Origin: Alphaproteobacteria bacterium
Lineage (GTDB): Bacteria; Pseudomonadota; Alphaproteobacteria; JAPOUT01; G958296285
Reading direction: 5' to 3'
Length of the DNA: 64,000 nt
NCBI GenBank assembly: GCA_965212075.1
Contig: OZ243043.1
Coordinates: forward strand, 582,763 to 646,762
Below, piece by piece: positions 3,810 through 62,108 of the stretch (the stretch's first letter is position 1; every line of letters starts with the position of its first letter). The position numbers were made by a program, and so were the translations under genes. The notes under the pieces are model-generated. The model did not search any database, had not been told where the DNA came from, and was given only the letters and a program-made list of their open reading frames with translations.

Positions 3810-6128
3810 ATGGCTTTATTATCATCATCTTTGGAGCAAGCGCTGCGTCTTGCGATTGATTATGCGCATCAATATCGCCATGAATATGTGATGCTTGAGC
3901 ATTTGCTGCTCGCGCTGATTGATGAAAAAGACGCGAAGCAAGTTTTTGCGGCCTGCGCCGTTGATGGCGATCAATTGCGCCGCGACATCAAAGATTGGCT
4001 GGAAAAAGAAATCCCGCAAGTGGAAGATGAGAGCAAAGACCATCCGCAGCCGACGATGGGGTTCCAGCGCGTCATTCAGCGGGCGATTTTTCACGTGCAA
4101 GGCGCCGGACGCAGCGAAGTGAACGGCGCGAATGTGCTGGTTGCGCTTTATGCCGAGCGCGAAAGCCACGCCGTGCATTTTTTACAAGAACAGAATATGT
4201 CGCGGCATGATGCGGTATCTTTTATCAGCCATGGGGTCACGAAAGATCAGGCGGTTGACGATATGCAATCTTCTGATCAAGAACAGGGGGAACAGAGCGG
4301 AGAAGAGAAAAAAAGTGAAAGAACGCATAAAGCTCTTGAAAAATGGTGCGTGGACTTAAATAAAAAAGCGGAAGAGGATAAAATTGACCCTCTGATTGGC
4401 CGCCAAAAAGAGGTGCGCCGCACGATTCAAATTTTATGTCGGCGGCGCAAGAACAATCCGATCTATGTCGGTGATCCGGGCGTTGGCAAGACGGCGATTG
4501 CGGAAGGCCTCGCGCGGCGGATCGTCAAGGACGATGTGCCCGATGTGCTGCATGATGCGCGGATTTTCTCTTTAGATATGGGCGCTTTGTTAGGCGGCAC
4601 GCGCTATCGCGGTGATTTTGAGGAGCGGCTCAAGGCTGTGCTCAAAGCTTTGGACAAAACGCCCGGCGCAGTCTTGTTCATTGATGAGATTCATACCGTG
4701 ATCGGCGCGGGCGCAGCAAGCGGCGGCACGATGGACGCTTCCAATTTACTCAAGCCCGCTTTGCAAAACGGCACTTTGCGCTGCATAGGTGCGACGACCT
4801 ATAAAGAATATCGGCGGCATTTTCAAAAAGATCGCGCGCTGACGCGCCGCTTTGAAAAAATAGATGTTGAAGAGCCTAGCATCAGCGAGACGATCAAAAT
4901 CCTCAACGGGCTGAAATCATATTTTGAGGAGTTTCACGCGCTGCGCTATACCTCCCATGCGCTCAAATCGGCGGTGGAGCTGTCGGCGCGCTATATGCAT
5001 GAGCGCAAGCTGCCCGACAAAGCAATCGACGTGATTGACGAAGCTGGCGCTGCGCAGCGCCTTCTGCCCAAGAGCCGCCGCAAGAAGGTGCTCGGCGTCA
5101 AGGATATTGAGGCGATCGTCGCGACGATGGCGCGCATCGCGCCCAAAACCATTTCAAAAGATGCGAGCGCGCAGCTTCATCAATTGCCGGAATCGCTCAA
5201 GCGGGTGGTGTTTGGGCAGGAGCAGGCGATTGAGGCTTTGTCGGCGGCGATCCGCACGGCGCGCGCCGGTCTGCGCGAGGGCGGCAAGCCGGTTGGCAGC
5301 TATCTGTTCTGCGGCCCGACCGGCGTCGGCAAGACTGAAATCGCACGCGCTTTGGCCGAAATTATGGGCGTGGAGATGCTGCGCTTTGACATGTCCGAAT
5401 ATATGGAGCGCCATACGGTTTCGCGGCTGATCGGCGCGCCGCCGGGCTATGTCGGCTTTGATCAGGGCGGGCTGCTGACCGACGGGGTGGATCAGCACCC
5501 TCATTGTGTGCTGCTGCTTGACGAGGTTGAAAAGGCGCATCCCGATATATTCAACATCCTGCTTCAGGTGATGGATCACGGCAAGCTGACCGACCATAAT
5601 GGCCGCAAGACCGATTTCAGCAATGTGATTTTGGTGATGACGACCAATGCGGGCGCGGTTGATATGGCGCGGGCACCCCTAGGCTTTGCGCGAGGCCGCC
5701 GCGAGGGCGACGATAAAGAGGCGATTGAGCGGATGTTCTCGCCGGAGTTCCGCAACCGCCTTGATGCGGTGATCCCGTTTGCGTCTCTGTCGCCGGAGCA
5801 TATCGCGCTTGTCGTCCAGAAATTCATTTACGAGCTGGAAGCGCAGCTGGCCGATCGCCAAGTGATGATTGAGCTTTCCGATGATGCGAACAAATGGATT
5901 GCCGAGCGGGGCTATGACGAAAAAATGGGCGCGCGGCCTCTGGCGCGCGTGATCCAGCAGGAGGTCAAGAAGCCGCTCGCCGACGAGATTTTGTTCGGCA
6001 AGTTAAAGAAGGGCGGCGTCGTGCAGGTTTCGGTTGATCTGTCGGGCAAAAAATTAAAGTTCAAGATTTTGCCTTTAGAAAAAAACTCAAAAAAGCAGGA
6101 ATCTTCAGATGAACCGCAAACATCTTAA
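3810..6128 (+). CDS. clpA: ATP-dependent Clp protease ATP-binding subunit ClpA
   Basis: 772 aa with an N-terminal Clp_N domain and two AAA+ modules (GDPGVGKTAIAEGLA, FCGPTGVGKTEIARALA). It follows clpS as in the conserved clpS-clpA operon. Confidence 0.95.
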   Translation: MALLSSSLEQALRLAIDYAHQYRHEYVMLEHLLLALIDEKDAKQVFAACAVDGDQLRRDIKDWLEKEIPQVEDESKDHPQPTMGFQRVIQRAIFHVQGAGRSEVNGANVLVALYAERESHAVHFLQEQNMSRHDAVSFISHGVTKDQAVDDMQSSDQEQGEQSGEEKKSERTHKALEKWCVDLNKKAEEDKIDPLIGRQKEVRRTIQILCRRRKNNPIYVGDPGVGKTAIAEGLARRIVKDDVPDVLHDARIFSLDMGALLGGTRYRGDFEERLKAVLKALDKTPGAVLFIDEIHTVIGAGAASGGTMDASNLLKPALQNGTLRCIGATTYKEYRRHFQKDRALTRRFEKIDVEEPSISETIKILNGLKSYFEEFHALRYTSHALKSAVELSARYMHERKLPDKAIDVIDEAGAAQRLLPKSRRKKVLGVKDIEAIVATMARIAPKTISKDASAQLHQLPESLKRVVFGQEQAIEALSAAIRTARAGLREGGKPVGSYLFCGPTGVGKTEIARALAEIMGVEMLRFDMSEYMERHTVSRLIGAPPGYVGFDQGGLLTDGVDQHPHCVLLLDEVEKAHPDIFNILLQVMDHGKLTDHNGRKTDFSNVILVMTTNAGAVDMARAPLGFARGRREGDDKEAIERMFSPEFRNRLDAVIPFASLSPEHIALVVQKFIYELEAQLADRQVMIELSDDANKWIAERGYDEKMGARPLARVIQQEVKKPLADEILFGKLKKGGVVQVSVDLSGKKLKFKILPLEKNSKKQESSDEPQTS

Positions 6129-6397
6129 AGTTTAAGCTCTTACTGCACCAGTGATAGAGAAAAGAGGCAGAAAACTGGCTGTATTTTGCTGAATCCAAGT
6201 CATTGATTTTTTCAATTTTTTTTAAAAATGGCCTTGACTCCTTTTACATCACCTATCAAACTACCCCCTATCGCTAAATGTATGGATAACCCTTGTTGGG
6301 TTTCCTACTAAATATAATACCCGGCACAGATCGGGTTTCCCCGTTTTTTCGGGGAATAGGTGGGGCATGATTTTTCCATGCGTTTAGCGATAAAACC

Positions 6398-6422
6398 CGG
6401 CACCTTCGGGTGCCGTTTTTTT
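6398..6422 (+). terminator. Intrinsic-terminator-like hairpin (CGGCACC-TTCG-GGTGCCG followed by T7) inside the leader of the downstream gene
   Basis: A perfect 7-bp GC-rich stem with a TTCG tetraloop is immediately followed by TTTTTTT. It lies 270 bp downstream of the clpA stop and about 20 bp upstream of the probable ATG at 6444. A second hairpin, CCCCG-T6-CGGGG, sits at 6339-6354. Confidence 0.55.
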
Positions 6423-6443
6423 AACGCAAATATGCAGGGGGGA

Positions 6444-7301
6444 ATGATGATGGGTATTCAGAAAACTTTTTTTAACAAGACCTTAGCTGGGTTTCTGGCT
6501 TTAAGTGTGGCACTGGGCACATTTCCGATAGAGGCTTTAGCTGAACACACGGAAACGAGATCTTGCCCAGCGACTATTGCTAGTTTTGGGAGTGGATTTG
6601 ATACTTCCCTAAGCGGCTCCACTCTGACTGCATCGGCGGTGGAGGGTGAAAATAATTGCATTTACGACCGAACTGGTGGCAATTCATTTGCATTGCGTAC
6701 CACCGGCGATACTTATTTAGCGGTTATCAATGGTGGTGTGCATCAAAATGATGACGGGAGTGAGACAACCTTCACGGCTAATTCAGTTGGTGTTGTAACT
6801 GCGCAATCCACTCCGAGAAGTAGTAGCAGTAGTAGCGGCAGCAGCAGCAGTTCCGGTGCCGTTGTCGGCGGGATCGTTGGTGGACTCGCCGGATTAGGGC
6901 TTTTGATTTGGTGGTGGGCAGCTTCCGGCGATGATGAAGACTCACAACTCATCCAATTCCATGACTTAGGGGCAAATTCTTATTTGCCCGCAAGGTCCTG
7001 GTTGGGCGTAGAACATGCCATCACAGACAATGCCAAATTTGCTCTCGGCACTTTCTGGCTGTCGGATGGCTCGGTCAATACGATTATTCCGTCCGTGGAT
7101 AATTCGGGTGTGGATGTTCGCTTGTCTTTGGCGACACGCATCGGCGAGGTTTCCTTCAGTGGGGCTGCTTATAATCATGGCGGGGCCTCACTAGATTATA
7201 ACAATAGCAGCATTGAAAACATCTTTGCTAATACGCTTGAATCCAGCGCTAACTCTGAAGTTGGCTATGCGGTCGGTTTGAACTGGCGCATGTCGTTTTA
7301 A
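6444..7301 (+). CDS. Hypothetical secreted/membrane protein with Ser-rich linker
   Basis: ATG at 6444 is preceded by GGGGGGAATG. It has a signal peptide (MMMGIQKTFFNKTLAGFLALSVALGTFPIEALA), a two-Cys N-domain, an SSSSSSGSSSSSG linker, a hydrophobic Gly-rich segment (GAVVGGIVGGLAGLGLLIWWW), and a C-terminal region ending ...GYAVGLNWRMSF with a terminal Phe. GC looks lower than in flanking genes. The ORF-track start at 6360 would place the terminator hairpin inside the CDS. Confidence 0.55.
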   Translation: MMMGIQKTFFNKTLAGFLALSVALGTFPIEALAEHTETRSCPATIASFGSGFDTSLSGSTLTASAVEGENNCIYDRTGGNSFALRTTGDTYLAVINGGVHQNDDGSETTFTANSVGVVTAQSTPRSSSSSSGSSSSSGAVVGGIVGGLAGLGLLIWWWAASGDDEDSQLIQFHDLGANSYLPARSWLGVEHAITDNAKFALGTFWLSDGSVNTIIPSVDNSGVDVRLSLATRIGEVSFSGAAYNHGGASLDYNNSSIENIFANTLESSANSEVGYAVGLNWRMSF

Positions 7302-7318: not shown

Positions 7319-8533
7319 TTAAATCGGATGAACCGCATGATCTCCCTTGATGTTGCCCAGCTTGCGGCGCGGTGAGGGCGGCGCTTGGCTCTCGGCATAG
7401 CCCATGCGGAACGCAAATGTTGGCTGCATCCGATTTTTCACGAGCTTCCTTAATTGGCGATCCATGCGCGCGGGCTTGTTGAGCATGCGCTCGCGATCAA
7501 CAATTTCTACGGTCTGGTTGATCGGGTGCATCGCGATGCCGCGCTCAGTCGCCATCAGATGAAGCCTTTGCCATAATTGTCCGGCGGCGAGCGAGTTCTT
7601 GACCGTCCAGCGTGTGCGCACCGCAATAATGCCGGCCAGCGGCGCTGTCGCAAGATGAACATTGCGCGTTGCATCAGCCCAAGCTTGATGGCTGTCTTCA
7701 GACGACAAAGCAGGCAGCATTTTTGCCGCCATCAAAATCATCGGCGAAAGTCCGGCGGTGTCCAGCGTGACGCCATCGCGATGGCGTTCAATTTCTTCCG
7801 GCGAGCCGCGAAACCAATGATGGCTCGCGGCCACCATATCTTCATCGTGGATAATTGTTTCTGTCGCCTGATTGGTCAATTTGTCAAAAAGCTCGCGTGA
7901 GCGGCCTTCATCAAAAAAAGATAAAGAGATACTCACAGCGCGCGCAGCGGTTTGAAACAAATTAACGATATCGCCAGGGATCGGCCTGTCGCGCAGATAG
8001 GCACCGCGATTTGTGTGGCGCTGTCCGATGGCCTGATAGAGCGCGCTGCGTGTCGGCTGTGCGCGCGTGAGCGTCAATGTCGCGATGAGCTTTTGTTCGG
8101 GGTTTTGAGGAATCGCGTTCAATCTGCCGCCCGTCAGATTGACCTCAGCCCTCCAGCCATGAGCAGGCGCGGCAAGCAGCATATTCTCAATCGCGCAGCC
8201 CAGCCCGATATGCATTTCGCGCAAATAGGGGTCAAACGCGCCGAGATTGCGGCGCTGGTCGGCATAAAGGCGGATGATTTTCTGCTCCGCGCTTTCATCC
8301 ACTTCAAAAACCCAAGGCTGCGTGTTATGAGGATTGGCCGCGAGCATGCCGGCGATCGCAATGGCTGTCGGCGTCCCCTGATATTGCGGATCGTCCCAAA
8401 GCGTCCATAATTTCCACGGATCGCCCTGCGCGACCGAAAAGGCATCGCGGCGCACACCGTGCCAGACGAACCCGCCAAGCGCGACGAACAAAGTTCCGCC
8501 GCCATATTTCAGCAGATCGCGCCGCGAGATCAT
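7319..8533 (-). CDS. Tat-signal (twin-arginine) exported protein, putatively nitroreductase-like
   Basis: The N-terminus MISRRDLLKYGGGTLFVALGGFVW is a classic RRxLLK Tat motif followed by an h-region. The body has nitroreductase-like segments (IGQRHTNRGAY; C-terminal ...GQLWQRLHLMATERGIAMHPI). The family assignment is weak. Confidence 0.55.
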   Translation of the reverse strand: MISRRDLLKYGGGTLFVALGGFVWHGVRRDAFSVAQGDPWKLWTLWDDPQYQGTPTAIAIAGMLAANPHNTQPWVFEVDESAEQKIIRLYADQRRNLGAFDPYLREMHIGLGCAIENMLLAAPAHGWRAEVNLTGGRLNAIPQNPEQKLIATLTLTRAQPTRSALYQAIGQRHTNRGAYLRDRPIPGDIVNLFQTAARAVSISLSFFDEGRSRELFDKLTNQATETIIHDEDMVAASHHWFRGSPEEIERHRDGVTLDTAGLSPMILMAAKMLPALSSEDSHQAWADATRNVHLATAPLAGIIAVRTRWTVKNSLAAGQLWQRLHLMATERGIAMHPINQTVEIVDRERMLNKPARMDRQLRKLVKNRMQPTFAFRMGYAESQAPPSPRRKLGNIKGDHAVHPI

Positions 8534-10176
8534 TTGGGGGGAATCTTCCAGATATTGGCGAATTCATCGGAGGAGAAATAGATCGCGCCGTCTTTGCCGA
8601 CGGCAAGCCCTGTCGGCAGCACAGTCGGGATGGGGCCGTCGGGCAGGCCGTTGATCGGCAGATTGTCGGCGATGACCTCGCGCTCGCCATTTTTGTCAAC
8701 GGCGATGATCCGTCTGAGTTTCGTTTCAGCGATGATGAATCGTCCATCCTTAAGCCGTGCTAGACCTTCGGCACCCTGCAGTCCCTGCGCGATAATTTTT
8801 TTGGCGCGTGTTTTAAGATTAAAGCTGATTAATCGGCCAGCGATATTTTCAATCAAAAACAAAGTTTGCTGGTCTTGGCTCAGCAGCAGAGTCGCCGGTC
8901 CGGCAAAACCGGTGGCGATTTTTTTCTTCTTTTCCCATTTTTTACCGCTCAATTTCAGCAGCGCGCCTTTGGCAAATTCGGCGATGAGCAGCTCGCCATT
9001 ATCCAAAATGACGGCATCATGCGGCGTCGTAAAACCATGGAGCAGAGCAAGTGATTTTTTTGTTTTGCGATCGAGCACTTGCACCGATCCCGCCGACCAG
9101 CCGGTCAGCGCGATATACTTGTCATTGACGGCGATATGCATCGGATAGTCAATTTCGCTGCCGAAGACGCGGCCAATATCGGTGACCTCGCCGCTCGTGG
9201 GATTCACCATGCGCGTGGCGAACACATCGGCGACATAAAGCACCTCTTTGCCGTTTTCGTGCCAGATCGCGACATCGCCTGCCGCAGCCAGCGCGCCGGA
9301 AATGATGGTAGTCGCTTTGCCGGTTTTTTTGTCAATTTCAATGATCGCATTGTCAGCCATATTGGAAATGAACAGCCGCCCGTCAGGATGAAAGGCGAGG
9401 TTGTCAATAGAGGGTTTGACTCTTGCGACGATGGTTTTCTTGCCGGACTTGCGATCAACGCGCACGACATGGCCGAGCGCGGTGTCCACCGCAAACAGAT
9501 CGCCGCTTTGCGGATCAATGTTGACCGCCGCCGGAACCTTGAATCCTCTGGCGATCGTTTTGATTTTAGCCTTTTCAAGATCCACTTGGACAATCTCGCC
9601 TTTGAACCAGAGCGGGCCGTAGAGCTTGCCGTCTTTGTCAATTTCAAAGCCATTCAAGCCGCCCATTTTTTCCATGATCTTGCGCGGTTTCTTTTTGCCG
9701 GAGACGTCAATTTCATAAAGCGCGTCACCGAGAAAGACTTGCGTGGCATAGAGCCGTCCGTCGGGGGCGAAGTCAAGCGAATTGAGGCCGGGCAGACCTT
9801 CGGCGACCGCGCGGATCGTGCCGCCCGTCTGTTCGCCATTTTTGATGCGCACGGGGTCTTTGACGTAGATTTTTCCTTCCAAGAACGCCGTCCAAGCAAT
9901 CATGCCGTCTTCGGCAAAAGCGATATCATCAGCTTGGCCGCGGGTCGGCGGAATGAAGGTTTTGCTTGTGCCGCTTCTGATGTCAATCTCGTAGGTCTGC
10001 GACCCCAAAACCGATCCGGCGAGCAAGCGGCCTTGATTATCAAAGCCCAGCCCGTGAATGCCGTGAAAGGGCGATTTCGGAGTCACTTCCTCAGGGCTGC
10101 CGCAGGCGGCTAGAGAGCCGAAAGCGGCTAAGACGCAGCAGATCATCAGCGCAAAATGTTTTCTATCTCTTTTCAT
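8530..10176 (-). CDS. Beta-propeller (NHL/SMP-30-like repeat) lipoprotein
   Basis: Lipoprotein signal with lipobox (MKRDRKHFALMICCVLAAFGSLAACGS). Repeated ~40-aa blades with DG(R/K)LY, LYVAD and DGAIYFS motifs. The start ATGA overlaps the HIT stop and the stop overlaps the downstream Tat-protein start, giving a coupled operon. Confidence 0.6.
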   Translation of the reverse strand: MKRDRKHFALMICCVLAAFGSLAACGSPEEVTPKSPFHGIHGLGFDNQGRLLAGSVLGSQTYEIDIRSGTSKTFIPPTRGQADDIAFAEDGMIAWTAFLEGKIYVKDPVRIKNGEQTGGTIRAVAEGLPGLNSLDFAPDGRLYATQVFLGDALYEIDVSGKKKPRKIMEKMGGLNGFEIDKDGKLYGPLWFKGEIVQVDLEKAKIKTIARGFKVPAAVNIDPQSGDLFAVDTALGHVVRVDRKSGKKTIVARVKPSIDNLAFHPDGRLFISNMADNAIIEIDKKTGKATTIISGALAAAGDVAIWHENGKEVLYVADVFATRMVNPTSGEVTDIGRVFGSEIDYPMHIAVNDKYIALTGWSAGSVQVLDRKTKKSLALLHGFTTPHDAVILDNGELLIAEFAKGALLKLSGKKWEKKKKIATGFAGPATLLLSQDQQTLFLIENIAGRLISFNLKTRAKKIIAQGLQGAEGLARLKDGRFIIAETKLRRIIAVDKNGEREVIADNLPINGLPDGPIPTVLPTGLAVGKDGAIYFSSDEFANIWKIPPK

Positions 10177-10616
10177 AAATCCTCCAATGCCGCCTTGATT
10201 TGCGCGGCGTGTTTTTTGAGTTCGTCCATGTCGGCTGTTTTGCGTCCGTGCAGCGGCAGATCGGATAAAGAGGCTGGCGCATTCGGGTCATGGCGCGGAA
10301 TGATATGAAAATGAATATGAAACACGGTCTGGCCGGCGGGGGCGCCATTGAGCTGGGCGACCACGATGCCTGCGCAATCAAAGGCTTTCTTGACGGCGCG
10401 CGCGACTTTTTGAGTCATGCGGATCGTCGCGGCGGCATAATCAGGATCAAGAGAGAGCAAATCTTCTGCCGGTGATTTCGGGATCACAAGCACATGGCCG
10501 GGCGCTTGCGGCATGATGTCCATAAAGACGAATGTATGCTCATCCTGCGCGACTTCAATGCAAGGCATCTCGCCGCGCAATATCTTGGCAAAAATATTAT
10601 CTTTATCGTAAGCCAT
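10173..10616 (-). CDS. HIT-family (histidine triad) nucleotide hydrolase
   Basis: A histidine triad HIHFHIIPRH and an N-terminal NIFAKILRGEMPC...FMDIMPQAPGHVLVIPK match HinT-like proteins. Confidence 0.85.
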   Translation of the reverse strand: MAYDKDNIFAKILRGEMPCIEVAQDEHTFVFMDIMPQAPGHVLVIPKSPAEDLLSLDPDYAAATIRMTQKVARAVKKAFDCAGIVVAQLNGAPAGQTVFHIHFHIIPRHDPNAPASLSDLPLHGRKTADMDELKKHAAQIKAALEDL

Positions 10617-10649
10617 CTGGCACCTCCCTGCTGATAGTCTATCAAAAAA

Positions 10650-11768
10650 TCATGCTTTATGGAAAGGGGTAGCGGTGCGCAGAGCGGCGATTTGCGCGTC
10701 AATGGCGCAGCTTTCATCGGCGAGATAATCGCTGACGGCGCGCGCCAATCCCGCATGGGCGATTTTATGCGCCGAATAAGTTTTGACCGGCTCATAGCCG
10801 CGCTCTATTTTATGCGGCCCTTGCGCGCCCGCTTCAACATAAGCGAGATCGTGGGCTAAGGCATAATCTATCGCTTGGTAGTAGCTGAGCTCAAAATGCA
10901 AGAAGGGCTTATATTCACGGCAGCCCCAATAGCGTCCGTAGAGGCGGTCGGCACCGATGAAATTCAAAGCGCCCGCGATCGGACGGCCAGCTTCCTCGGC
11001 GATGATGAGTAAAATGCGATCAGCAAGCTGCTCACCGAAGAGGCTAAAACATTCGCGCGTCAAATAAGGATGACCCCATTTTCTCATGCCGGTATCGGTA
11101 TAAAATTCAAAAAACATATCCCAGATATTTTCGGTCAGATCGGAGCCGGTCAATTGTTTGATCGTCAGGCCTTTTTGCGCCGCGGCGCGCTCTTTGCGCA
11201 GAGCTTTGCGGCGGCGCGAGGTGAGGTTGGCCAAAAACGCCTCAAAGTCGCCATAATTTTTGTTATGCCAGTGAAATTGAATGCCGGTGCGCGAGAGCAT
11301 ATTGTTTTTGCACATGGATGACCACTGGCCAGCGTCAGGAAAATTTATATGAAGCGACGAAGCTTTGAACTGATTCATCACTTCAATCGCAGCGCCGATC
11401 ATCGTCGGATAATGTTCGGGCGCAGCCAAAAGGCGCAAGCCCGTCACCGGCGTGAAGGGCACACAAGAAACAAGCTTGGGATAATAATCATGACCGGCGC
11501 GCTCAAGCGCATCAGCCCAAGCGTGGTCAAAGATATATTCACCTTGGCTGTGGCTTTTGAGGTAAAGCGGCATCGCGCCGGTAATTTTATCTTCATCTTT
11601 GAGAATGAGATGACAAGGCTGCCATCCTGTCTGCGGTGCCACCGAGCGTGAGGCCTCAAGTGCATAAAGAAACGCGTGCGAGAGAAAAGGATCGCTGCCA
11701 GCTAATTGATCCCATTGATCGGCGGCGATTTTATCAAGCCCGCTGATGACTTGGATATTTGCGGTCAT
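10650..11768 (-). CDS. GNAT/FemAB-like N-acyltransferase family protein (COG3146/DUF482 type)
   Basis: About 370 aa. The N-terminus MTANIQVISGLDKIAADQWDQLAGSDPFLSHAFLYALEAS resembles the conserved alphaproteobacterial FemAB-like family. ATG at 11768 is preferred over the TTG at 11789 used by the ORF track. Confidence 0.6.
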   Translation of the reverse strand: MTANIQVISGLDKIAADQWDQLAGSDPFLSHAFLYALEASRSVAPQTGWQPCHLILKDEDKITGAMPLYLKSHSQGEYIFDHAWADALERAGHDYYPKLVSCVPFTPVTGLRLLAAPEHYPTMIGAAIEVMNQFKASSLHINFPDAGQWSSMCKNNMLSRTGIQFHWHNKNYGDFEAFLANLTSRRRKALRKERAAAQKGLTIKQLTGSDLTENIWDMFFEFYTDTGMRKWGHPYLTRECFSLFGEQLADRILLIIAEEAGRPIAGALNFIGADRLYGRYWGCREYKPFLHFELSYYQAIDYALAHDLAYVEAGAQGPHKIERGYEPVKTYSAHKIAHAGLARAVSDYLADESCAIDAQIAALRTATPFHKA

Positions 11769-12395: not shown

Positions 12396-12932
12396 ATGGC
12401 CAAAAAGAAAAAGACAGTTAGGAAAAAGGCGGCTAAAAAAAAGGCGGTTAAGAGAAAAACAATAAAGAAAAAGACGATAAAGAGAAAGACAGTAAAGAGA
12501 AAAGCTGCAAAAAAGAAAACTGTAAAAAAGACCGCAAAACGTCAAAAATCGGCGAAGACACAAGACGCCCAATCTTCCGATGACGCAGCATCTTTGGCGG
12601 GTCGCCGCCGTGCCTTAAGAAGAAGACGGCGGACTTTGCGCATGAAAAAAGCCGGCACGTCAATCACTGATGTGGGCATGGTTGCAGGCACGGCGAGCCG
12701 TTCAACATTGTTGACGCGCACGCGGATCATTCGCAAGCGCGAGGATATCGGCATTTTGCCGATTGACAAAAATGTGATGATTAAGGAGCTGATTCAAGCT
12801 GGTAGCATTACTAAGCTAGCGACGCGTTTTGGCGTCACAAAGCAGGCGATTGGCTCATGGTTTGGGCGGCGTGGATTGCAGGCAGTTGATGTCGCTGGTG
12901 AACATGCGACGCATAAAAAAGAAATAATGTAG
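12396..12932 (+). CDS. Lysine-rich histone H1-like DNA-binding protein with C-terminal HTH-like region
   Basis: ATG at 12396 is preceded by AGGA. The N-terminus MAKKKKTVRKKAAKKKAVKRKTIKKKTIKRKTVKRKAAKKKTVKKTAKRQ has degenerate (K)KKT[VI]KRK repeats, and the C-terminus has an HTH-like segment ITKLATRFGVTKQAIGSWF. The long ORF-track start at 12300 has no SD. Confidence 0.6.
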   Translation: MAKKKKTVRKKAAKKKAVKRKTIKKKTIKRKTVKRKAAKKKTVKKTAKRQKSAKTQDAQSSDDAASLAGRRRALRRRRRTLRMKKAGTSITDVGMVAGTASRSTLLTRTRIIRKREDIGILPIDKNVMIKELIQAGSITKLATRFGVTKQAIGSWFGRRGLQAVDVAGEHATHKKEIM

Positions 12933-21322: not shown

Positions 21323-21982
21323 ATGGATATAGGCAAGATATTTTTTTCACTTCTGCTATGCGCGGGGCTTCTAGCCTGCTCCCAAGAGGAAAGTGCGCAG
21401 CTAAAAGAATTACGTCAGCTCGCTGGTGAAAGCGATAAGATGGCGCAGTTTGGCTTGGCGACTTTATATTATGAAGGCAAGGAAATTGCGCGTAATTATG
21501 AGGAAGCCGCGCGCTGGTATCGTTTGGCCGCCGGACAGGGTCTGCCTGATGCGCAATTTCACTTAGGCCAGCTTTATGATGAAGGGCGAGGTGTCGTGCA
21601 AAATCCCAAACAGGCGCATGATTGGTATTTGAAAGCCGCGCAGCAAAATTATCACGATGCGCAATATAGGCTGGCTCTGCTTTATGAGCAGGGCAGAGGC
21701 ATTACCAAAGATTATGCTCAAGCTGAGGCTTGGTATCGGCAGGCGGCGGCTTTAGGTCATGTCCGCGCGCTGAACAATTTGGGCGTGATGTATGTTGAGG
21801 GCAGAGGAGTTCCGCAGAATAAAATTTTTGCCTATATTTGGTTTGATTTGGCGTCAAAGTTTGGCCATAAGCAGGCGACAAAACGCCGTGATGACATCGC
21901 CGCGCAAATGACCGTCAACGAGCTTGAAAATGCTGAAAAACAAGCGCAGCGTTTATTAACAGAAATTAAAGCCAGAAGGTAA
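21323..21982 (+). CDS. Sel1-like repeat (SLR) lipoprotein
   Basis: Lipoprotein signal MDIGKIFFSLLLCAGLLACSQ followed by about five SLR units (A..WYRLAAGQGLPDAQF.LG.LY.EGRGV..N..QA..WY.KAA). Confidence 0.8.
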   Translation: MDIGKIFFSLLLCAGLLACSQEESAQLKELRQLAGESDKMAQFGLATLYYEGKEIARNYEEAARWYRLAAGQGLPDAQFHLGQLYDEGRGVVQNPKQAHDWYLKAAQQNYHDAQYRLALLYEQGRGITKDYAQAEAWYRQAAALGHVRALNNLGVMYVEGRGVPQNKIFAYIWFDLASKFGHKQATKRRDDIAAQMTVNELENAEKQAQRLLTEIKARR

Positions 21983-33589: not shown

Positions 33590-33674
33590 GCGGTCGTGGC
33601 GGAATTGGTAGACGCGCAGCGTTGAGGGCGCTGTGGGGCAACCCGTGGAAGTTCGAGTCTTCTCGACCGCACCA
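33590..33674 (+). tRNA. tRNA-Leu (anticodon GAG)
   Basis: Cloverleaf folded by hand. Acceptor GCGGTCG/CGACCGC, 3-bp D-stem with an 11-nt D-loop, anticodon stem CAGCG/CGCTG, loop UUGAGGG (U33, anticodon GAG), long variable arm GGGG/CCC, T-arm GGAAG-TTCGAGT-CTTCT, discriminator A, encoded CCA. Confidence 0.9.
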
Positions 33675-58896: not shown

Positions 58897-59699
58897 TAGT
58901 TTGGGAAATCCAGCACCATGCCGTCATAGGCCGGCTCGATGCCGTCAGGCAGTTCGCGCTTGAGCGTCTGGTAGTCCAAATCAATATGCATATTGGTCAA
59001 CACGCCGCGCTGCGGCTTGACTCGGGCGAGCCATTCAAGCGCGCGCTCAAGGTGCGCATGGGTCGGATGAGGCTGGTAGCGCAAAGTATCCACGATCCAA
59101 CATTCAACACCTCGGAGCGCGCTGAAGCTGGCTTCAGGCACTTCCACAACATCGGGCGCATAGGCCACCGGCCCGAAGCGGAAGCCCAGCGCATCCACCG
59201 AGCCGTGATGGAGCAAAAATGGCTCAAACCCAATATCGCCGCCGGGGCCGGAGATTTTACCCGACTCGGCGACCTGCAGCTCGTGGAGCTTCAAAAACTC
59301 CATATAGCCCGACCCCTCAATGGCTTGAAAGCAATAGCTGAAGCGTTTTGTCATGATGGCGGCGGTGGCTTTGTCCATATAGACATCGACACTCTGCCAG
59401 CGATTGATGAAAAAAGCGCGCAGATCATTGATGCCATGGGTCTGGTCGGCGTGGTGGTGGGTGTAGAGGACGCCGTCGAGCCAGTCCACGCCCCTGCCCA
59501 AGAGCTGGTCGTAGAGGTCAGGGGATGTGTCCACGAGAACGCGCGTCGCTTCCCCTGCCCCATTAAAGCGCTCAACGAGGATGGAGCAGCGGCGGCGGCG
59601 GTTTTTCGGCTCTTGAGGATCACACGCGCCCCAGTCGCCGCCAATCCGCGGTACGCCGCCGGAGGAGCCGCAGCCCAAAATCGTGACTCGCAGGCTCAA
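58890..59699 (-). CDS. MBL-fold metallo-hydrolase (PhnP-like)
   Basis: HTHHHADQTHGINDL is the HxHxDH metallo-beta-lactamase motif. It follows tatD as in the conserved alphaproteobacterial cluster. Confidence 0.82.
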   Translation of the reverse strand: MSLRVTILGCGSSGGVPRIGGDWGACDPQEPKNRRRRCSILVERFNGAGEATRVLVDTSPDLYDQLLGRGVDWLDGVLYTHHHADQTHGINDLRAFFINRWQSVDVYMDKATAAIMTKRFSYCFQAIEGSGYMEFLKLHELQVAESGKISGPGGDIGFEPFLLHHGSVDALGFRFGPVAYAPDVVEVPEASFSALRGVECWIVDTLRYQPHPTHAHLERALEWLARVKPQRGVLTNMHIDLDYQTLKRELPDGIEPAYDGMVLDFPNYV

Positions 59700-60514
59700 A
59701 CCGGCTTCTCGGCGCGTGAAGTGCGTGAAGCGCGGGAAAACAGCCGGAAAAAATTATCGGAAGTGATTTTGGCCAGCTCCGGCGCGGGGATGTTTTTGAG
59801 CGCGGCGATATAATCAGCGGTTTTGGCTACAAAAGCCGGTTCATTGCGCTTGCCGCGATGAGGCACAGGCGCCAAATAAGGCGCATCGGTCTCGACGAGC
59901 AGCCGGTCGGTCGGCAGATCGCGGACGATCGCCTGCAAATCCTGCGCGTTCTTGAAGGTCACAATCCCCGATATGGAGATATAAAGCCCAAGGGCTAGCG
60001 CCGTTTCGGCTAGCTGGCGGCCTGCGGTGAAGCAATGCATCACCGCCGTGAACGCGCCCCGCTCCATTTCTTCGGTGAGAATGCGCGCGACCTCCTGATC
60101 GGCGGCGCGGGCGTGGATGATGACCGGCAGGCCTGTGCGGCGCGCGGCTTCAATATGGACGCGAAACAGCTTTTCCTGCAGCGCAGCCTGCTGAGCGTCG
60201 CGGTAAAAATCAAGGCCGGTCTCGCCGAGCCCGACGATTTTTTTTCTTTGTTTGGAGTCATTTTGCTCGACAATCTGAACTAATTTATCGGCGTCAAGGT
60301 CGGCATGATCCCCGACCTCATTCGGGTGAACGCCGACAGAATAAACCACCTGTTCATAATTGGCCGCGATCGCGGCGATCTCTTTGATCTCGTCGAGCCG
60401 TGTGCCGATGCTGACCATGAGGCCGACCCCAGCCTCTCCGGCGCGCGCGACAACCCCGTCCAGATCGTCGCTGAAGCTGCTGAAATTTAAATGGCAATGG
60501 CTATCAACGAGCAT
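59696..60514 (-). CDS. tatD: TatD-family metal-dependent hydrolase (DNase)
   Basis: MLVDSHCHLNFSSF...VGVHP...ETDAPYL. Confidence 0.9.
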   Translation of the reverse strand: MLVDSHCHLNFSSFSDDLDGVVARAGEAGVGLMVSIGTRLDEIKEIAAIAANYEQVVYSVGVHPNEVGDHADLDADKLVQIVEQNDSKQRKKIVGLGETGLDFYRDAQQAALQEKLFRVHIEAARRTGLPVIIHARAADQEVARILTEEMERGAFTAVMHCFTAGRQLAETALALGLYISISGIVTFKNAQDLQAIVRDLPTDRLLVETDAPYLAPVPHRGKRNEPAFVAKTADYIAALKNIPAPELAKITSDNFFRLFSRASRTSRAEKPV

Positions 60515-60515
60515 A

Positions 60516-62108
60516 TTAATCCTTCTTATATCTGGGAAAAAGCGGTGCCGGTGCAGGCAGTTTCTTTCCGGGTTTTAATATATCAAGCAGTGAAGCAAAA
60601 TCTCGTTTATCCTCATCAACAGCCAGATAATCCAGTAATTTTTTCATATCATTGGGCATAAAGGGCTGCAATAAAATAGCGGCTTGGCGCAAAACATCAA
60701 TGACTATGTAAAGCACATCGCCTTGAGTCTTGCGGTCAGTTTTCGCGAGTTTCCAAGGCTCGTTTTCAGTAAAATAGAGATTAGCTTTACTAATAAAACC
60801 AAAAACAATTTCAAGGGCTATATCTGGGTGGTCAAACTCCATTGAATCACGCACTCTAGATAATAAATCTAAAACGCCGAAAGTTACTGTCGATCCTGCA
60901 GAGGTCTGTGGAAGAAACTTCGTGATGTAATTTCCTTCAGGTAATCTGAACGTCAATGGTGAGACACGGCTTATAGAAGGAATTCTGCCATCCCAGTCTT
61001 TCTGGAGCATCGTCAGTGAGCGCTGAGCGAGATTGCCAAGATTATTGGCGAGATCAGCATTGAGACGGTGAATGATCTGTTGGTCGCCGCATATTCCATC
61101 AGCGCCGAAAACGACTTCACGTAATAGAAAAAAACGGAATGGATCAACGCCATAGGTTTCAGCCAGTTCAAACGGATCAAGCACATTGCCGAGTGATTTT
61201 GACATTTTTTTGCCCTCCCCAGTCAAGATCATGCCGTGAGCAAAAATAGATTTGGGGAGAGGCAGGCCCGCCGACATCAAAAAGGCCGGCCAATAGACTG
61301 TATGGAATCTTAAAATATCTTTGCCGATAATATGAAGGTCGGCAGGCCAAAAACCTCCTTTATTTTCATCAGGGTATCCGATAGCCGTTAAGTAATTTGT
61401 CAAAGCATCCAGCCAGACATAGACGATATGTTGATCATCTTCTGGCACTTTCACGCCCCAATCAAAACTGGAGCGCGAAATGGATAAATCTTTCAACCCG
61501 CCTTTGACGAAAGAAATGACCTCATTGCGTCGCGTTTCGGGCTGGATAAAATCAGGATGTTTCTTATAATAATCCAGCAGTCTATCTTGATATTCTGACA
61601 ATTTAAAAAAATAGCTCTCCTCTTCAACCCATTCCACTGGCGCGCCGGAAGGCGTCGCCCAGTCGCCCTGTTCGTCTTTGACAAGCTCGCTTTCGGTATA
61701 AAACTCTTCCTCACGCGGCGCATACCATCCGGCATAAACACCTTTATAAATATCTCCCTTTTTTTCTATTTCGTTCCAAATATGCTGCACCGCGCGATGA
61801 TGTTCTTTCTGCGATGTCTGGATAAAATAATCATAAGAAATGGAAAAATGATCGCACATCGCCTTGAAAAGCTGGCTGAGCTGCCCGGTCAGCTCCTGCG
61901 GCGATTTGTTCTGCGCGCGCGCCTCGCGGTAGATTTTTTGCCCATGCTCATCGGTGCCGGTGACGAAATAGACCTCATAGCCGTCAAGCCGCTTGAAGCG
62001 CGCAAAGGCGTCAGCCGCGATCGCCTCATAGGCATGGCCGATATGCGGCGGCCCGTTCGGATAGGAAATCGCCGTCGTGATATAAAACTTTTTCTTTGAT
62101 GCACTCAT
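60516..62108 (-). CDS. metG: Methionine--tRNA ligase
   Basis: HIGH motif (YPNGPPHIGHAYEAI) and KMSKS motif (GKKMSKSLGNV); 530 aa. Confidence 0.95.
   Translation of the reverse strand: MSASKKKFYITTAISYPNGPPHIGHAYEAIAADAFARFKRLDGYEVYFVTGTDEHGQKIYREARAQNKSPQELTGQLSQLFKAMCDHFSISYDYFIQTSQKEHHRAVQHIWNEIEKKGDIYKGVYAGWYAPREEEFYTESELVKDEQGDWATPSGAPVEWVEEESYFFKLSEYQDRLLDYYKKHPDFIQPETRRNEVISFVKGGLKDLSISRSSFDWGVKVPEDDQHIVYVWLDALTNYLTAIGYPDENKGGFWPADLHIIGKDILRFHTVYWPAFLMSAGLPLPKSIFAHGMILTGEGKKMSKSLGNVLDPFELAETYGVDPFRFFLLREVVFGADGICGDQQIIHRLNADLANNLGNLAQRSLTMLQKDWDGRIPSISRVSPLTFRLPEGNYITKFLPQTSAGSTVTFGVLDLLSRVRDSMEFDHPDIALEIVFGFISKANLYFTENEPWKLAKTDRKTQGDVLYIVIDVLRQAAILLQPFMPNDMKKLLDYLAVDEDKRDFASLLDILKPGKKLPAPAPLFPRYKKD

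Follow-up and report, generated by a model that had tools for sequence, protein, structure and literature searches.

A small family of exported proteins joining a variable N-terminal domain to a conserved helix and six-strand module, tentatively an outer-membrane anchor

The window, by which we mean the whole 64,000-nt stretch of DNA analysed (contig OZ243043.1 of an alphaproteobacterium), carries next to clpA an open reading frame encoding a protein of 285 residues, hereafter referred to as the window protein (Table 1). The gene on its other side, an Acg-like gene on the opposite strand (7319-8533, minus), is convergent with it, as already described in the first-pass annotation of this DNA, and 17 nt separate the two stop codons.

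Table 1. Features of the locus, in window coordinates.
Feature	Position	Strand	Basis or remark
14-nt direct repeat, left copy, TCAGATGAACCGCA	6105-6118	+	Within the last codons of clpA
Putative promoter, -35 element TTGACT	6234-6239	+	From sequence only; promoter region 6234-6262
Putative promoter, weak -10 element CAAACT	6257-6262	+	17-nt spacer
Conserved structured leader or sRNA	6269-6422	+	Fold and conservation
G-rich Shine-Dalgarno-like stretch	6434-6443	+	Sequence; conserved in L001
Open reading frame	6444-7301	+	285-aa translation
Signal peptide, aa 1-33	6444-6542	+	Sequence reading; predicted signal peptidase I site ALA↓EH
Variable N-domain, aa 34-125	6543-6818	+	Beta-rich, two Cys
Ser/Gly linker, aa 126-138, SSSSSSGSSSSSG	6819-6857	+	(AGY)n trinucleotide array
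Gly-zipper hydrophobic helix, aa 139-160, AVVGGIVGGLAGLGLLIWWWAA	6858-6923	+	AF2 helix in both models
Acidic tether SGDDEDSQ	6924-6947	+	Length variable across the family
Conserved beta module, aa 169-285	6948-7298	+	Six long amphipathic strands, ending in F285
14-nt direct repeat, right copy, TCGGATGAACCGCA	7324-7337	+	Within the last codons of the convergent Acg-like gene
			

The N-terminus of the window protein reads as a signal peptide, with K7 and K12, a hydrophobic core and the predicted cleavage site, and residues 4-25 are helical in the AF2 prediction. Equivalent AxA-type sites were seen in family members. The predicted site is without a Cys, and the protein thus lacks a lipobox. Its only two cysteines, C41 and C72, both of which are conserved in the relative P0001, lie in the N-domain, where AF2 predicts strands with a pLDDT of 60-73. 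The linker is encoded by an AGT/AGC array (TRF: period 3, 8.7 copies, 6825-6850), and equivalent poly-Ser or poly-Gly linkers are present in relatives. It leads into a Gly-rich hydrophobic segment, which ends in a Trp cluster, is only marginally hydrophobic (+0.9 by a crude sum) and is followed by an acidic flank of net charge -4. The C-terminal sequence is GLNWRMSF. The signal peptide, the two-cysteine N-domain, the repeat-encoded Ser linker, the Gly-rich segment and the terminal Phe had all been noticed in the first-pass annotation, and each of them stands. That annotation had also called the product a secreted Ser-rich protein; the protein is indeed exported, but it is probably anchored in a membrane rather than freely secreted.

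Searches among 1.84 billion representative sequences returned 14 matches, comprising 13 family members and one spurious match by linker and helix (P0013, a eukaryotic type I membrane protein with a Ser-stalk and a GxxxG helix). With a few more from a profile search and from the loci, the family has about 20 members in all. A search of GTDB species genomes returned the genome of the relative L001 alone, and scanning JGI metagenomes for the protein yielded no further relative. Matches in Pfam, NCBIfam, PHROGs and PADLOC were limited to low-complexity or helix regions, in agreement with the earlier failure to recognise a family. Using hmmscan against Pfam-A (E up to 10 for the window protein and up to 1 for 17 family members), we found no match to an autotransporter, YadA-anchor or outer-membrane protein model; a match of one relative to DUF2490 was sub-threshold (E = 0.037). 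A profile search of PDB sequences gave nothing real (best match E = 0.52), and Foldseek against the PDB gave no match below E = 0.2. These results show that the protein belongs to a very small, undescribed family of exported envelope proteins, which is absent from Pfam and NCBIfam and has only about 20 known members.

All members share an architecture of variable N-terminal and conserved C-terminal parts. In paralogs, the N-domain is replaced by unrelated domains of 90-360 aa, which in P0003, a paralog located elsewhere, have beta-helix-like repeats. Tandem paralogs whose N-domains differ in size occur at three loci (three copies in L002, and two each in L004 and L013). Pairs of genes for Bor-like outer-membrane lipoproteins adjoin family members in two distant loci; the 64-kb window itself contains no further paralog and no Bor-like gene.

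The two parts also differ in their rates of evolution. In comparison with L001, dN/dS was 0.91 for the N-domain and 0.81 for the longest predicted loop, against 0.25 for the beta core and 0.06-0.18 for neighbouring genes. The N-domain evolves at a near-neutral rate, and the open reading frame is a real, fast-evolving gene. The family splits clearly into a fast-evolving part, taken here as the displayed one, and a constrained part, taken as its anchor.

The composition of the gene differs from that of its surroundings. As the first-pass annotation had judged by eye, its GC content (0.490) is below those of clpA (0.547) and the Tat/Acg-like gene (0.571); relative to the 52 long open reading frames of the window (0.541 +/- 0.033) this corresponds to a z of about -1.6. 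The difference is larger in GC3 (0.469 versus 0.587 +/- 0.053, z about -2.2), and in synonymous codon choice the gene ranks second of 52 for deviation (z = -3.1). By these z-scores the deviation is real but modest. Three other open reading frames in the window (12396-12932, 21323-21982 and 60516-62108) are equally AT-rich.

These values could reflect a recent, strain-specific horizontal acquisition. The patchiness of the family, whose other members have at most about 40% identity and lie in unrelated genomic contexts, is in keeping with such an event, as is a 14-nt direct repeat that brackets a 1.2-kb block including the gene (two matches in 64 kb, with 0.06 expected by chance). Against it, both relatives that retain the neighbourhood, L001 and L002, with which synteny was compared, have orthologs at the same position, between clpS-clpA and Acg-SGL-HIT; the flanking proteins are 71-89% identical to theirs, and the orthologs have a similarly low GC3 (0.467 and 0.466). 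L001 carries the repeat at both flanks too, and therefore the insertion is older than the split of these genomes, between which the dS of clpA is about 0.8. No integrase or transposase was found among the neighbouring genes, the sole tRNA in the window (at 33590) is 26 kb from the gene, and the plasmid and phage collections searched gave no match. A recent acquisition is thus largely refuted, and we regard a strain-specific island gene as highly improbable. The 1.2-kb block is likely an old insertion that separates clpA from the Acg-like gene convergent with it. Of the isolated, possibly acquired insertion proposed in the first-pass annotation, the bracketing repeat and the deviant composition support the insertion, but the same-site orthologs contradict a recent or strain-specific one; that is, syntenic orthologs exist and the composition nevertheless differs from that of the neighbours. 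In L002, the repeat motif follows each tandem paralog. The right copy encodes a lineage-specific C-terminal tail of the Acg-like protein, DHAVHPI, which is missing from distant Acg homologs; around Acg homologs of at most 50% identity, in more distant genomes, the neighbourhood is entirely different and synteny is lost.

To describe the C-terminal module, we used AF2 monomer models, which were built on only 15-17 sequences and have a mean pLDDT of 60-68. Both models show a helix followed by six strands, with a core pLDDT of 76-89, and all six strands are conserved in the family alignment. Five of them are 9-13 residues long, strand 1 being shorter, and they are connected alternately by turns of 3-6 and loops of 8-26 residues; as the strand count is even, both ends of the sheet lie on the same side. 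The invariant residues of the module are Y, R, G, G, F, W, P, N and G. One face of the sheet is variable yet always hydrophobic, and the other is formed by Gly, Ala and Ser together with the conserved charged residues R48, E54, K62, E88, E99, D138 and R140 (module numbering). In the last strand, hydrophobic residues occupy alternate positions, and every aligned member terminates in F, W or Y, including those with a different spacing; the W-x-x-x-F arrangement of the final aromatic residues is not canonical. The similarity to outer-membrane beta strands suggested earlier for the C-terminus is upheld by this strand pattern and the terminal aromatic residue, whereas the 8-10-stranded barrel then envisaged is replaced in the models by six conserved strands.

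We tentatively read the C-terminal module as an outer-membrane anchor that functions like that of an autotransporter or a trimeric autotransporter, with the N-domain displayed on the surface, although our confidence in this assignment falls a little short of an even chance. Sec would export the protein by means of its cleavable-looking signal peptide, and BAM would recognise the six-strand unit through its C-terminal aromatic signal. Insertion into the outer membrane would follow, and since a membrane barrel cannot be closed by six strands alone, the unit would most likely insert in oligomeric form. The small-residue helix may sit in the barrel lumen or beside the barrel, and the linker and the N-domain would be displayed at the cell surface and evolve quickly there. 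Among the features expected of BAM substrates, the module has the C-terminal aromatic residue and amphipathic strands, even in number and around 10 residues long, with short turns on one side and long loops on the other. In place of the at least eight strands that close a barrel within one chain, six are conserved, and a hydrophobic helix of 15-22 residues, of a length that BAM substrates lack, is found in all full-length members.

Hydrophobic helices are normally absent from outer-membrane proteins, as Sec would keep them in the inner membrane, and the helix found throughout the family is a genuine hydrophobic segment, which counts against an outer-membrane anchor. So does the tether between helix and strand 1, whose length differs by some 10-20 residues among members whereas autotransporters have a fixed junction at this point, and so does the conserved charged face of the sheet, with which a hydrophobic helix would hardly be expected to pair. 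We know of no barrel protomer that the six-strand unit matches. The failure of Foldseek and of the Pfam models for outer-membrane proteins and autotransporters to match, as well as the thin alignment underlying the AF2 models, also weaken the assignment.

Part of this evidence would fit a type I inner-membrane protein, in which a cleaved signal peptide is followed by a periplasmic N-domain on a Ser stalk, a stop-transfer helix and a cytoplasmic beta module, as in a receptor or sensor. AF2 predicts a 22-residue hydrophobic helix, the crude hydrophobicity sums reach -2.0, so that several members are hydrophobic enough to insert, and in P0007 the flank after the helix is Lys-rich (+6) and resembles an inner-membrane stop-transfer sequence. 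That the juxtamembrane tether is flexible and of variable length points to two units that fold independently, and the Ser stalk with its GxxxG helix comes close to the eukaryotic type I protein matched spuriously. Yet P0007 is the only member in which this flank is clearly positive; it is net negative in 12 of the 17 members, contrary to the positive-inside rule. Several of the hydrophobic stretches, which range from 15 to 22 residues, have only about 15, and that of the window protein is marginal, which likewise argues against an inner-membrane anchor. Furthermore, the hydrophobic face of a single six-strand sheet would be left without a conserved intramolecular partner, the invariant terminal aromatic residue and the alternation of turns and loops have no obvious cytoplasmic reason, and PADLOC gave no match, nor did PilZ or any other Pfam model. 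We therefore consider the inner-membrane topology possible but doubtful. The beta module in such a protein could, for example, resemble Cap15-type proteins in being a small barrel that binds a ligand or oligomerises. Should the tail prove to be cytoplasmic and part of a type I receptor, it would represent a new signalling domain.

Glycine-zipper helices in the outer membrane have precedents in SlyB and YfgH (bioRxiv 10.64898/2025.12.22.696046). By analogy, the window protein could be a single-pass alpha-helical protein of the outer membrane or its periplasmic face, with the Gly-zipper helix spanning or dipping into the membrane and oligomerising and the beta module in the periplasm. Like SlyB, YfgH, OsmB and YiaD, it is an exported Gram-negative protein with a GxxxG-repeat hydrophobic helix, and two family members are adjoined by the Bor-like lipoprotein genes. 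The pattern GxxxGxxxGxxxG, present in the window protein and in those most closely related to it, is not shared by all members. Unlike those proteins, it has no lipobox Cys, one helix instead of a 2TM hairpin and a different accompanying domain, and the glycine-zipper families PF13488 and PF05433 were not matched significantly, the best Pfam glycine-zipper match (Gly-zipper_Omp, in P0001) having E = 8.9. The beta module has strands of membrane-like length and a fully hydrophobic face, and there is no known route by which the N-domain of such a protein would cross the outer membrane. We judge this arrangement improbable.

The outer-membrane anchor that we favour was compared with known systems. 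The barrel of a type Va autotransporter comprises roughly 250-300 aa. The resemblance to this type (e.g. the BrkA beta domain, PDB 3qq2) lies in the order of passenger, helix and C-terminal beta anchor and in the beta-helix-like repeats of the P0003 passenger; the module of the window protein, in contrast, has about 117 aa and six strands, not the 12 of the type Va barrel (PMC6555100), and does not match Pfam Autotransporter (PF03797). In the trimeric autotransporter adhesins (type Vc, with a YadA-like C-terminal anchor), three chains form one 12-stranded barrel (PMC6555100). The family shares with them, in this order, a signal peptide, a displayed N-terminal passenger, a small-residue helix and, immediately after it, a short C-terminal set of amphipathic strands, as well as an aromatic last residue, and the anchor of the window protein is too small for a lone barrel, which implies oligomerisation. 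It differs in having six predicted strands per chain in both AF2 models rather than four, in lacking a match to YadA_anchor (PF03895; hmmscan with the window protein and 17 members), and in lacking a predicted coiled-coil or helical stalk, the passenger being a beta-rich globular domain of about 90 aa on a poly-Ser linker. Its helix is also far more hydrophobic, and a variable acidic tether leads to strand 1. The eight-stranded NspA, OmpX and OmpA/OprF N-domains have similar strands with alternating hydrophobic and small or polar faces, short turns, long loops and a terminal aromatic residue; in the family, only six strands are conserved, a hydrophobic helix and a sizeable N-terminal domain are added to them, and no sequence match to these proteins was found, the sole trace being the sub-threshold DUF2490 match.

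A more specific version, in which the tail is a new self-inserting display anchor whose Gly-zipper helix and six strands build a barrel of 12 strands from two chains or of 18 from three and bring interchangeable passengers to the surface, we regard as rather unlikely. Such an anchor would add another architecture to secretion types Va-Vf and would break the rule that hydrophobic helices are absent from BAM substrates. An outer-membrane anchor in general would constitute a minimal module for surface display, portable and about 150 aa long, with an unprecedented protomer of one helix and six strands, and it would offer a test of how a hydrophobic helix passes Sec and arrives in the outer membrane, with a bearing on outer-membrane protein sorting and type V secretion.

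Other identities were considered for parts of the protein. The hydrophobic segment has no two-residue periodicity and is too short in several members for a beta hairpin. As an internal signal peptide it would lack a positive N-region, and Pro follows the Trp cluster in many members. With about 125 residues following the helix, a PEP-CTERM or GlyGly-CTERM sorting signal was rejected, as was a PilZ-like barrel, the motifs of which do not fit and for which Pfam gave no match.

The region upstream of the gene has features of its own. Identity to L001 is 90% over the intergenic region, compared with 73-83% over coding DNA, and reaches about 97% over the leader element itself. The leader is closed by an 18-bp stem (6269-6286 paired with 6374-6391), which encloses three internal hairpins, and a terminator scan located an intrinsic terminator at 6398-6415 plus a T-run. 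The long stem is predicted, with G.U pairs on the plus strand only, the z-score of the fold is -2.6, and the terminator differs from that of L001 by one compensatory and two wobble changes. Rfam yielded no family at its gathering score (the best match, Atu_C8, was sub-threshold at 24 bits versus 50), a metagenome scan with 20-mers of the leader gave three chance matches only, and no copies of the leader were found in the other family loci. The -35 hexamer of the putative promoter is kept in L001, with a varying spacer; the promoter was not called by a consensus scan. The Shine-Dalgarno-like stretch is followed by three successive ATG codons (6444, 6447 and 6450). The gene thus appears to be served by a promoter of its own and to be preceded by a conserved, structured leader about 150 nt long. 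As the leader terminates 22 nt before the start codon, expression of the gene probably requires regulated read-through of the terminator. The conserved leader with its terminator is, in its own right, a candidate for a novel cis-regulatory RNA.

The target ORF proved to be real, encoding a product of 285 amino acids in which the signal peptide, the two cysteines, the Ser linker, the Gly-rich stretch and the C-terminal end described in the first-pass annotation are all present (see the table below). That annotation recognized no family for the product; in agreement, none of the Pfam, NCBIfam, PHROG and PADLOC models or the PDB sequences matched it. An exhaustive phmmer search against 1.84 billion representative proteins yielded 14 matches, and a profile search together with inspection of the loci added a few, giving a family of about 20 proteins. 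The GTDB species genomes contained only one further genome with a family member, and none was found in the JGI metagenomes. One of the 14 phmmer matches, P0013, was rejected as spurious since it matches the Ser linker and helix only. The exact sequence of the target protein is absent from the public collection that contains P0019, a protein encoded on a 1.6 Mb contig and 100% identical to the Acg-like neighbor.

Features of the target gene and its flanking DNA (nucleotide positions refer to the window, aa to the 285-residue product)
Feature	Position	Strand	Basis or detail
Putative -35 box TTGACT	leader region		kept in the relative L001 while the spacer varies
Core leader element	6262-6428	+	~97% identical to L001
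Closing stem, 18 bp	6269-6286 with 6374-6391	+	predicted
Three internal hairpins	within 6262-6428	+	predicted
Intrinsic terminator, with T-run	6398-6415 plus T-run	+	terminator scan
Target ORF	6444-7301	+	285 aa
Signal peptide and N-domain (first 125 codons)	6444-6818	+
Signal-peptide-like N-terminus, ALA|EH	aa 1-33		sequence; AF2 helix at residues 4-25
Cysteines, exactly two	C41, C72		protein sequence
Ser linker SSSSSSGSSSSSG	aa 126-138		encoded by an AGT/AGC trinucleotide array
Gly-rich hydrophobic stretch AVVGGIVGGLAGLGLLIWWWAA	aa 139-160		protein sequence
C-terminal end	...GLNWRMSF		sequence
14-nt direct repeat TC(A/G)GATGAACCGCA, copy 1	6105-6118		last codons of clpA
14-nt direct repeat, copy 2	7324-7337		last codons of the Acg-like gene
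Acg-like gene (homolog of FMN-binding oxidoreductases)	7319-8533	-	twin-arginine-like (Tat) N-terminus; convergent with the target ORF

A common architecture was seen in all the full-length family members. Each begins with a signal peptide having an AxA-type site, followed by an N-domain of about 30–360 residues that is wholly different between members and often contains cysteines, and by a low-complexity linker rich in Ser, Gly or acidic residues. Then come a hydrophobic helix of 15–22 residues with a Trp/Tyr cluster at its end, a variable and mostly acidic tether, and a conserved module of ~120 residues in which Y, R, G, G, F, W, P, N and G are invariant and the last residue is F, W or Y. 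We conclude with high confidence that the gene is genuine and that its product is exported and membrane-anchored, representing a new family with very few members in which a variable displayed domain is joined to a conserved tail of one helix and six strands.

To assess the tail, we ran AF2 with the full alignment (mean pLDDT 60; conserved core 76–89) and with only the C-terminal module (mean pLDDT 68). The two models agree in topology: after a long helix come six strands, of which the first is short and the remaining five are 9–13 residues long; the C-terminal barrel of 8–10 strands put forward earlier was thus not borne out. Fold comparison of the tail model gave 8.2 for the BrkA autotransporter beta domain, 7.8 for NspA, 7.6 for a designed transmembrane barrel, 7.5 for KdgM and 7.1 for the OprF N-domain, with the soluble up-and-down barrels of streptavidin (7.1) and Cap15 (6.2) close behind, and Foldseek returned nothing significant. 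The models therefore point to a long antiparallel meander with barrel-like curvature, without placing the protein in any family.

Column-by-column reading of the beta module in 15 sequences showed that each strand has a hydrophobic but freely variable face (L/I/V/F/M/Y) and an opposite one that carries Gly, Ala and Ser together with the conserved charges R48, E54, K62, E88, E99, D138 and R140 (module numbering). Turns of 3–6 residues alternate with loops of 8–26 residues, and the even strand count places both ends of the sheet on the same side. The terminal aromatic residue is found in every member, including where an extra residue shifts the spacing. The two faces, the turn/loop alternation and the terminal aromatic residue are hallmarks of BAM-inserted outer-membrane strands. 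Six strands are too few to close a membrane barrel; since the helix is the sole other conserved element, we infer an oligomeric assembly. The conserved tail would then act as an oligomeric outer-membrane anchor in the manner of an autotransporter or TAA anchor, a reading that we favor only tentatively and at slightly below even chances. The protein is not itself a member of these families, into which its strand number, its passenger type and the sequence models tested do not place it.

In the main rival reading, the protein is a type I inner-membrane receptor whose beta domain lies in the cytoplasm. This reading draws its chief argument from the hydrophobic segment; a cytoplasmic domain would have little apparent use for the outer-membrane-strand hallmarks. 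As a crude sum of central-position values of the biological hydrophobicity scale, the insertion propensity of the helix was marginal among family members (−2.0 to +6, mostly 0 to +2) and similar to that of these proteins' cleavable signal peptides; several of the segments have only ~15 residues. The 15 residues after the helix carry a net negative charge in 12 of 17 members and are clearly positive in P0007 only (+6), which contradicts the positive-inside rule for an N-out/C-in anchor without excluding one. We regard the inner-membrane topology as less likely than the outer-membrane anchor. Glycine-zipper helices residing in the outer membrane have a precedent in the lipoproteins SlyB/YfgH (bioRxiv 10.64898/2025.12.22.696046), from which the target protein differs in having no lipobox, a single helix and no significant glycine-zipper Pfam match.

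Comparison with the ortholog in L001, one of the two available relatives that keep the clpS-clpA/target/Acg neighborhood, showed that the gene is under selection. Its dN/dS was 0.49 as a whole, 0.91 in the N-domain, 0.81 in the longest predicted loop (aa 246–271) and 0.25 in the beta core, as compared with 0.06–0.18 in five neighboring genes. Over the signal peptide and N-domain dN was about equal to dS, and protein evolution there seems relaxed or diversifying. Tandem paralogs with near-identical tails and unrelated N-domains occur in L002, the other relative (three copies, at 7650–11320, with N-domains of differing size), and at L004 and L013 (two each). The first L002 copy is broken by in-frame stops, which mark it as a pseudogene unless they are artefacts of the long-read assembly (6x coverage); beta-helix-like repeats are seen in the N-domain of one L002 paralog. 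Copies 2 and 3 are each accompanied by a promoter-like TTGACA-N18-TAATGT, apparently derived from duplicated Acg 3′-end sequence. Fast-evolving, interchangeable front ends on a constrained tail are, by analogy, the pattern of surface-display/adhesin families. Pairs of genes for Bor-like (PF06291) outer-membrane lipoproteins directly adjoin two distantly related members (L005, 1363–2007; L013, 5292–5933); the 64 kb window contains none, and no other conserved partner gene was seen in the loci inspected.

The first-pass annotation had taken the gene for a low-GC, possibly horizontally acquired insertion. Its GC content of 0.490 is below those of clpA (0.547) and the downstream gene (0.571); relative to the 52 long ORFs of the window, GC has a z-score of about −1.6, GC3 is 0.469 against 0.587 ± 0.053 (z about −2.2), and synonymous codon choice ranks second of 52 for deviance (z = −3.1). 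The deviation holds, though modestly, as three further ORFs are equally AT-rich. ORFs 60516–62108 (−) and 21323–21982 (+) have similarly low GC/GC3 (0.455/0.465 and 0.485/0.468), so that the target gene is not the sole compositional outlier. ORF 12396–12932 (+; GC 0.469), third in codon deviance, encodes 178 residues with an extremely Lys/Arg/Ala-rich N-terminal half (MAKKKKTVRKKAAKKKAVKRK...) and resembles a histone H1-like or AlgP-like nucleoid protein. The most deviant entry, 58986–59813 (+; GC 0.60), is probably spurious in this crude ORF list, as the encoded sequence resembles that of a non-coding or antisense frame.

Instead of being absent from relatives, the gene is present downstream of clpA in both L001 and L002, which share the order dnaJ-like, clpS, clpA, target, Acg-like, SGL propeller and HIT. 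Flanking proteins are 71–89% identical to those of the window, while identity of the target is 57% in L001 and 42–48% for the L002 copies (tblastn). Ortholog GC3 is as low as that of the target gene (0.467 and 0.466, versus ~0.6 in neighbors), and is normal in the two additional L002 paralogs. Recent horizontal transfer is thus essentially excluded. No integrase or transposase was found in the neighboring genes, no adjacent tRNA, and no relative in plasmid or phage collections. This synteny has been lost from more distant genomes, which therefore set no bounds on when the gene was gained. It nevertheless probably entered by an old insertion. The 14-nt direct repeat brackets a block of ~1.2 kb comprising the intergenic region and the target gene, with both clpA and the Acg-like gene terminating inside it; no other copy occurs in the 64 kb (0.06 expected by chance), and a rough post hoc estimate of the chance of such a pair within ~40 nt of both borders is ~3e-4. 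L001 likewise has the repeat on either side of the block, and in L002 it comes after every tandem copy; it encodes the Acg C-terminal tail DHAVHPI, missing from distant Acg homologs. The pair resembles a scar left by an old insertion or duplication.

The spacer between clpA and the target gene is 90% identical to that of L001, versus 73–83% for the surrounding coding DNA, in which synonymous sites are near saturation. The two non-Watson-Crick pairs of the predicted closing stem are G.U on the + strand only, and the terminator differs from that of L001 by one compensatory and two wobble substitutions. No Rfam family reached threshold for the leader (Atu_C8 scored 24 bits, its gathering score being 50), and no further copies were found at other loci or in metagenomes. 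Only 22 nt separate the end of the terminator from the first ATG, and 12 nt from a G-rich Shine-Dalgarno-like stretch, which is too little to accommodate a second promoter; transcription of the target gene must therefore probably read through it. We consider the core element a candidate new regulatory RNA, which would be a cis-acting leader of the attenuator or riboswitch-like kind or else an sRNA combined with read-through. Over codons 1–125 of the target gene, dS against L001 is low (0.30–0.40, versus 0.8–1.3 in neighbors), which could reflect either constraint at the RNA level that continues from the leader or an allele exchange of more recent date.
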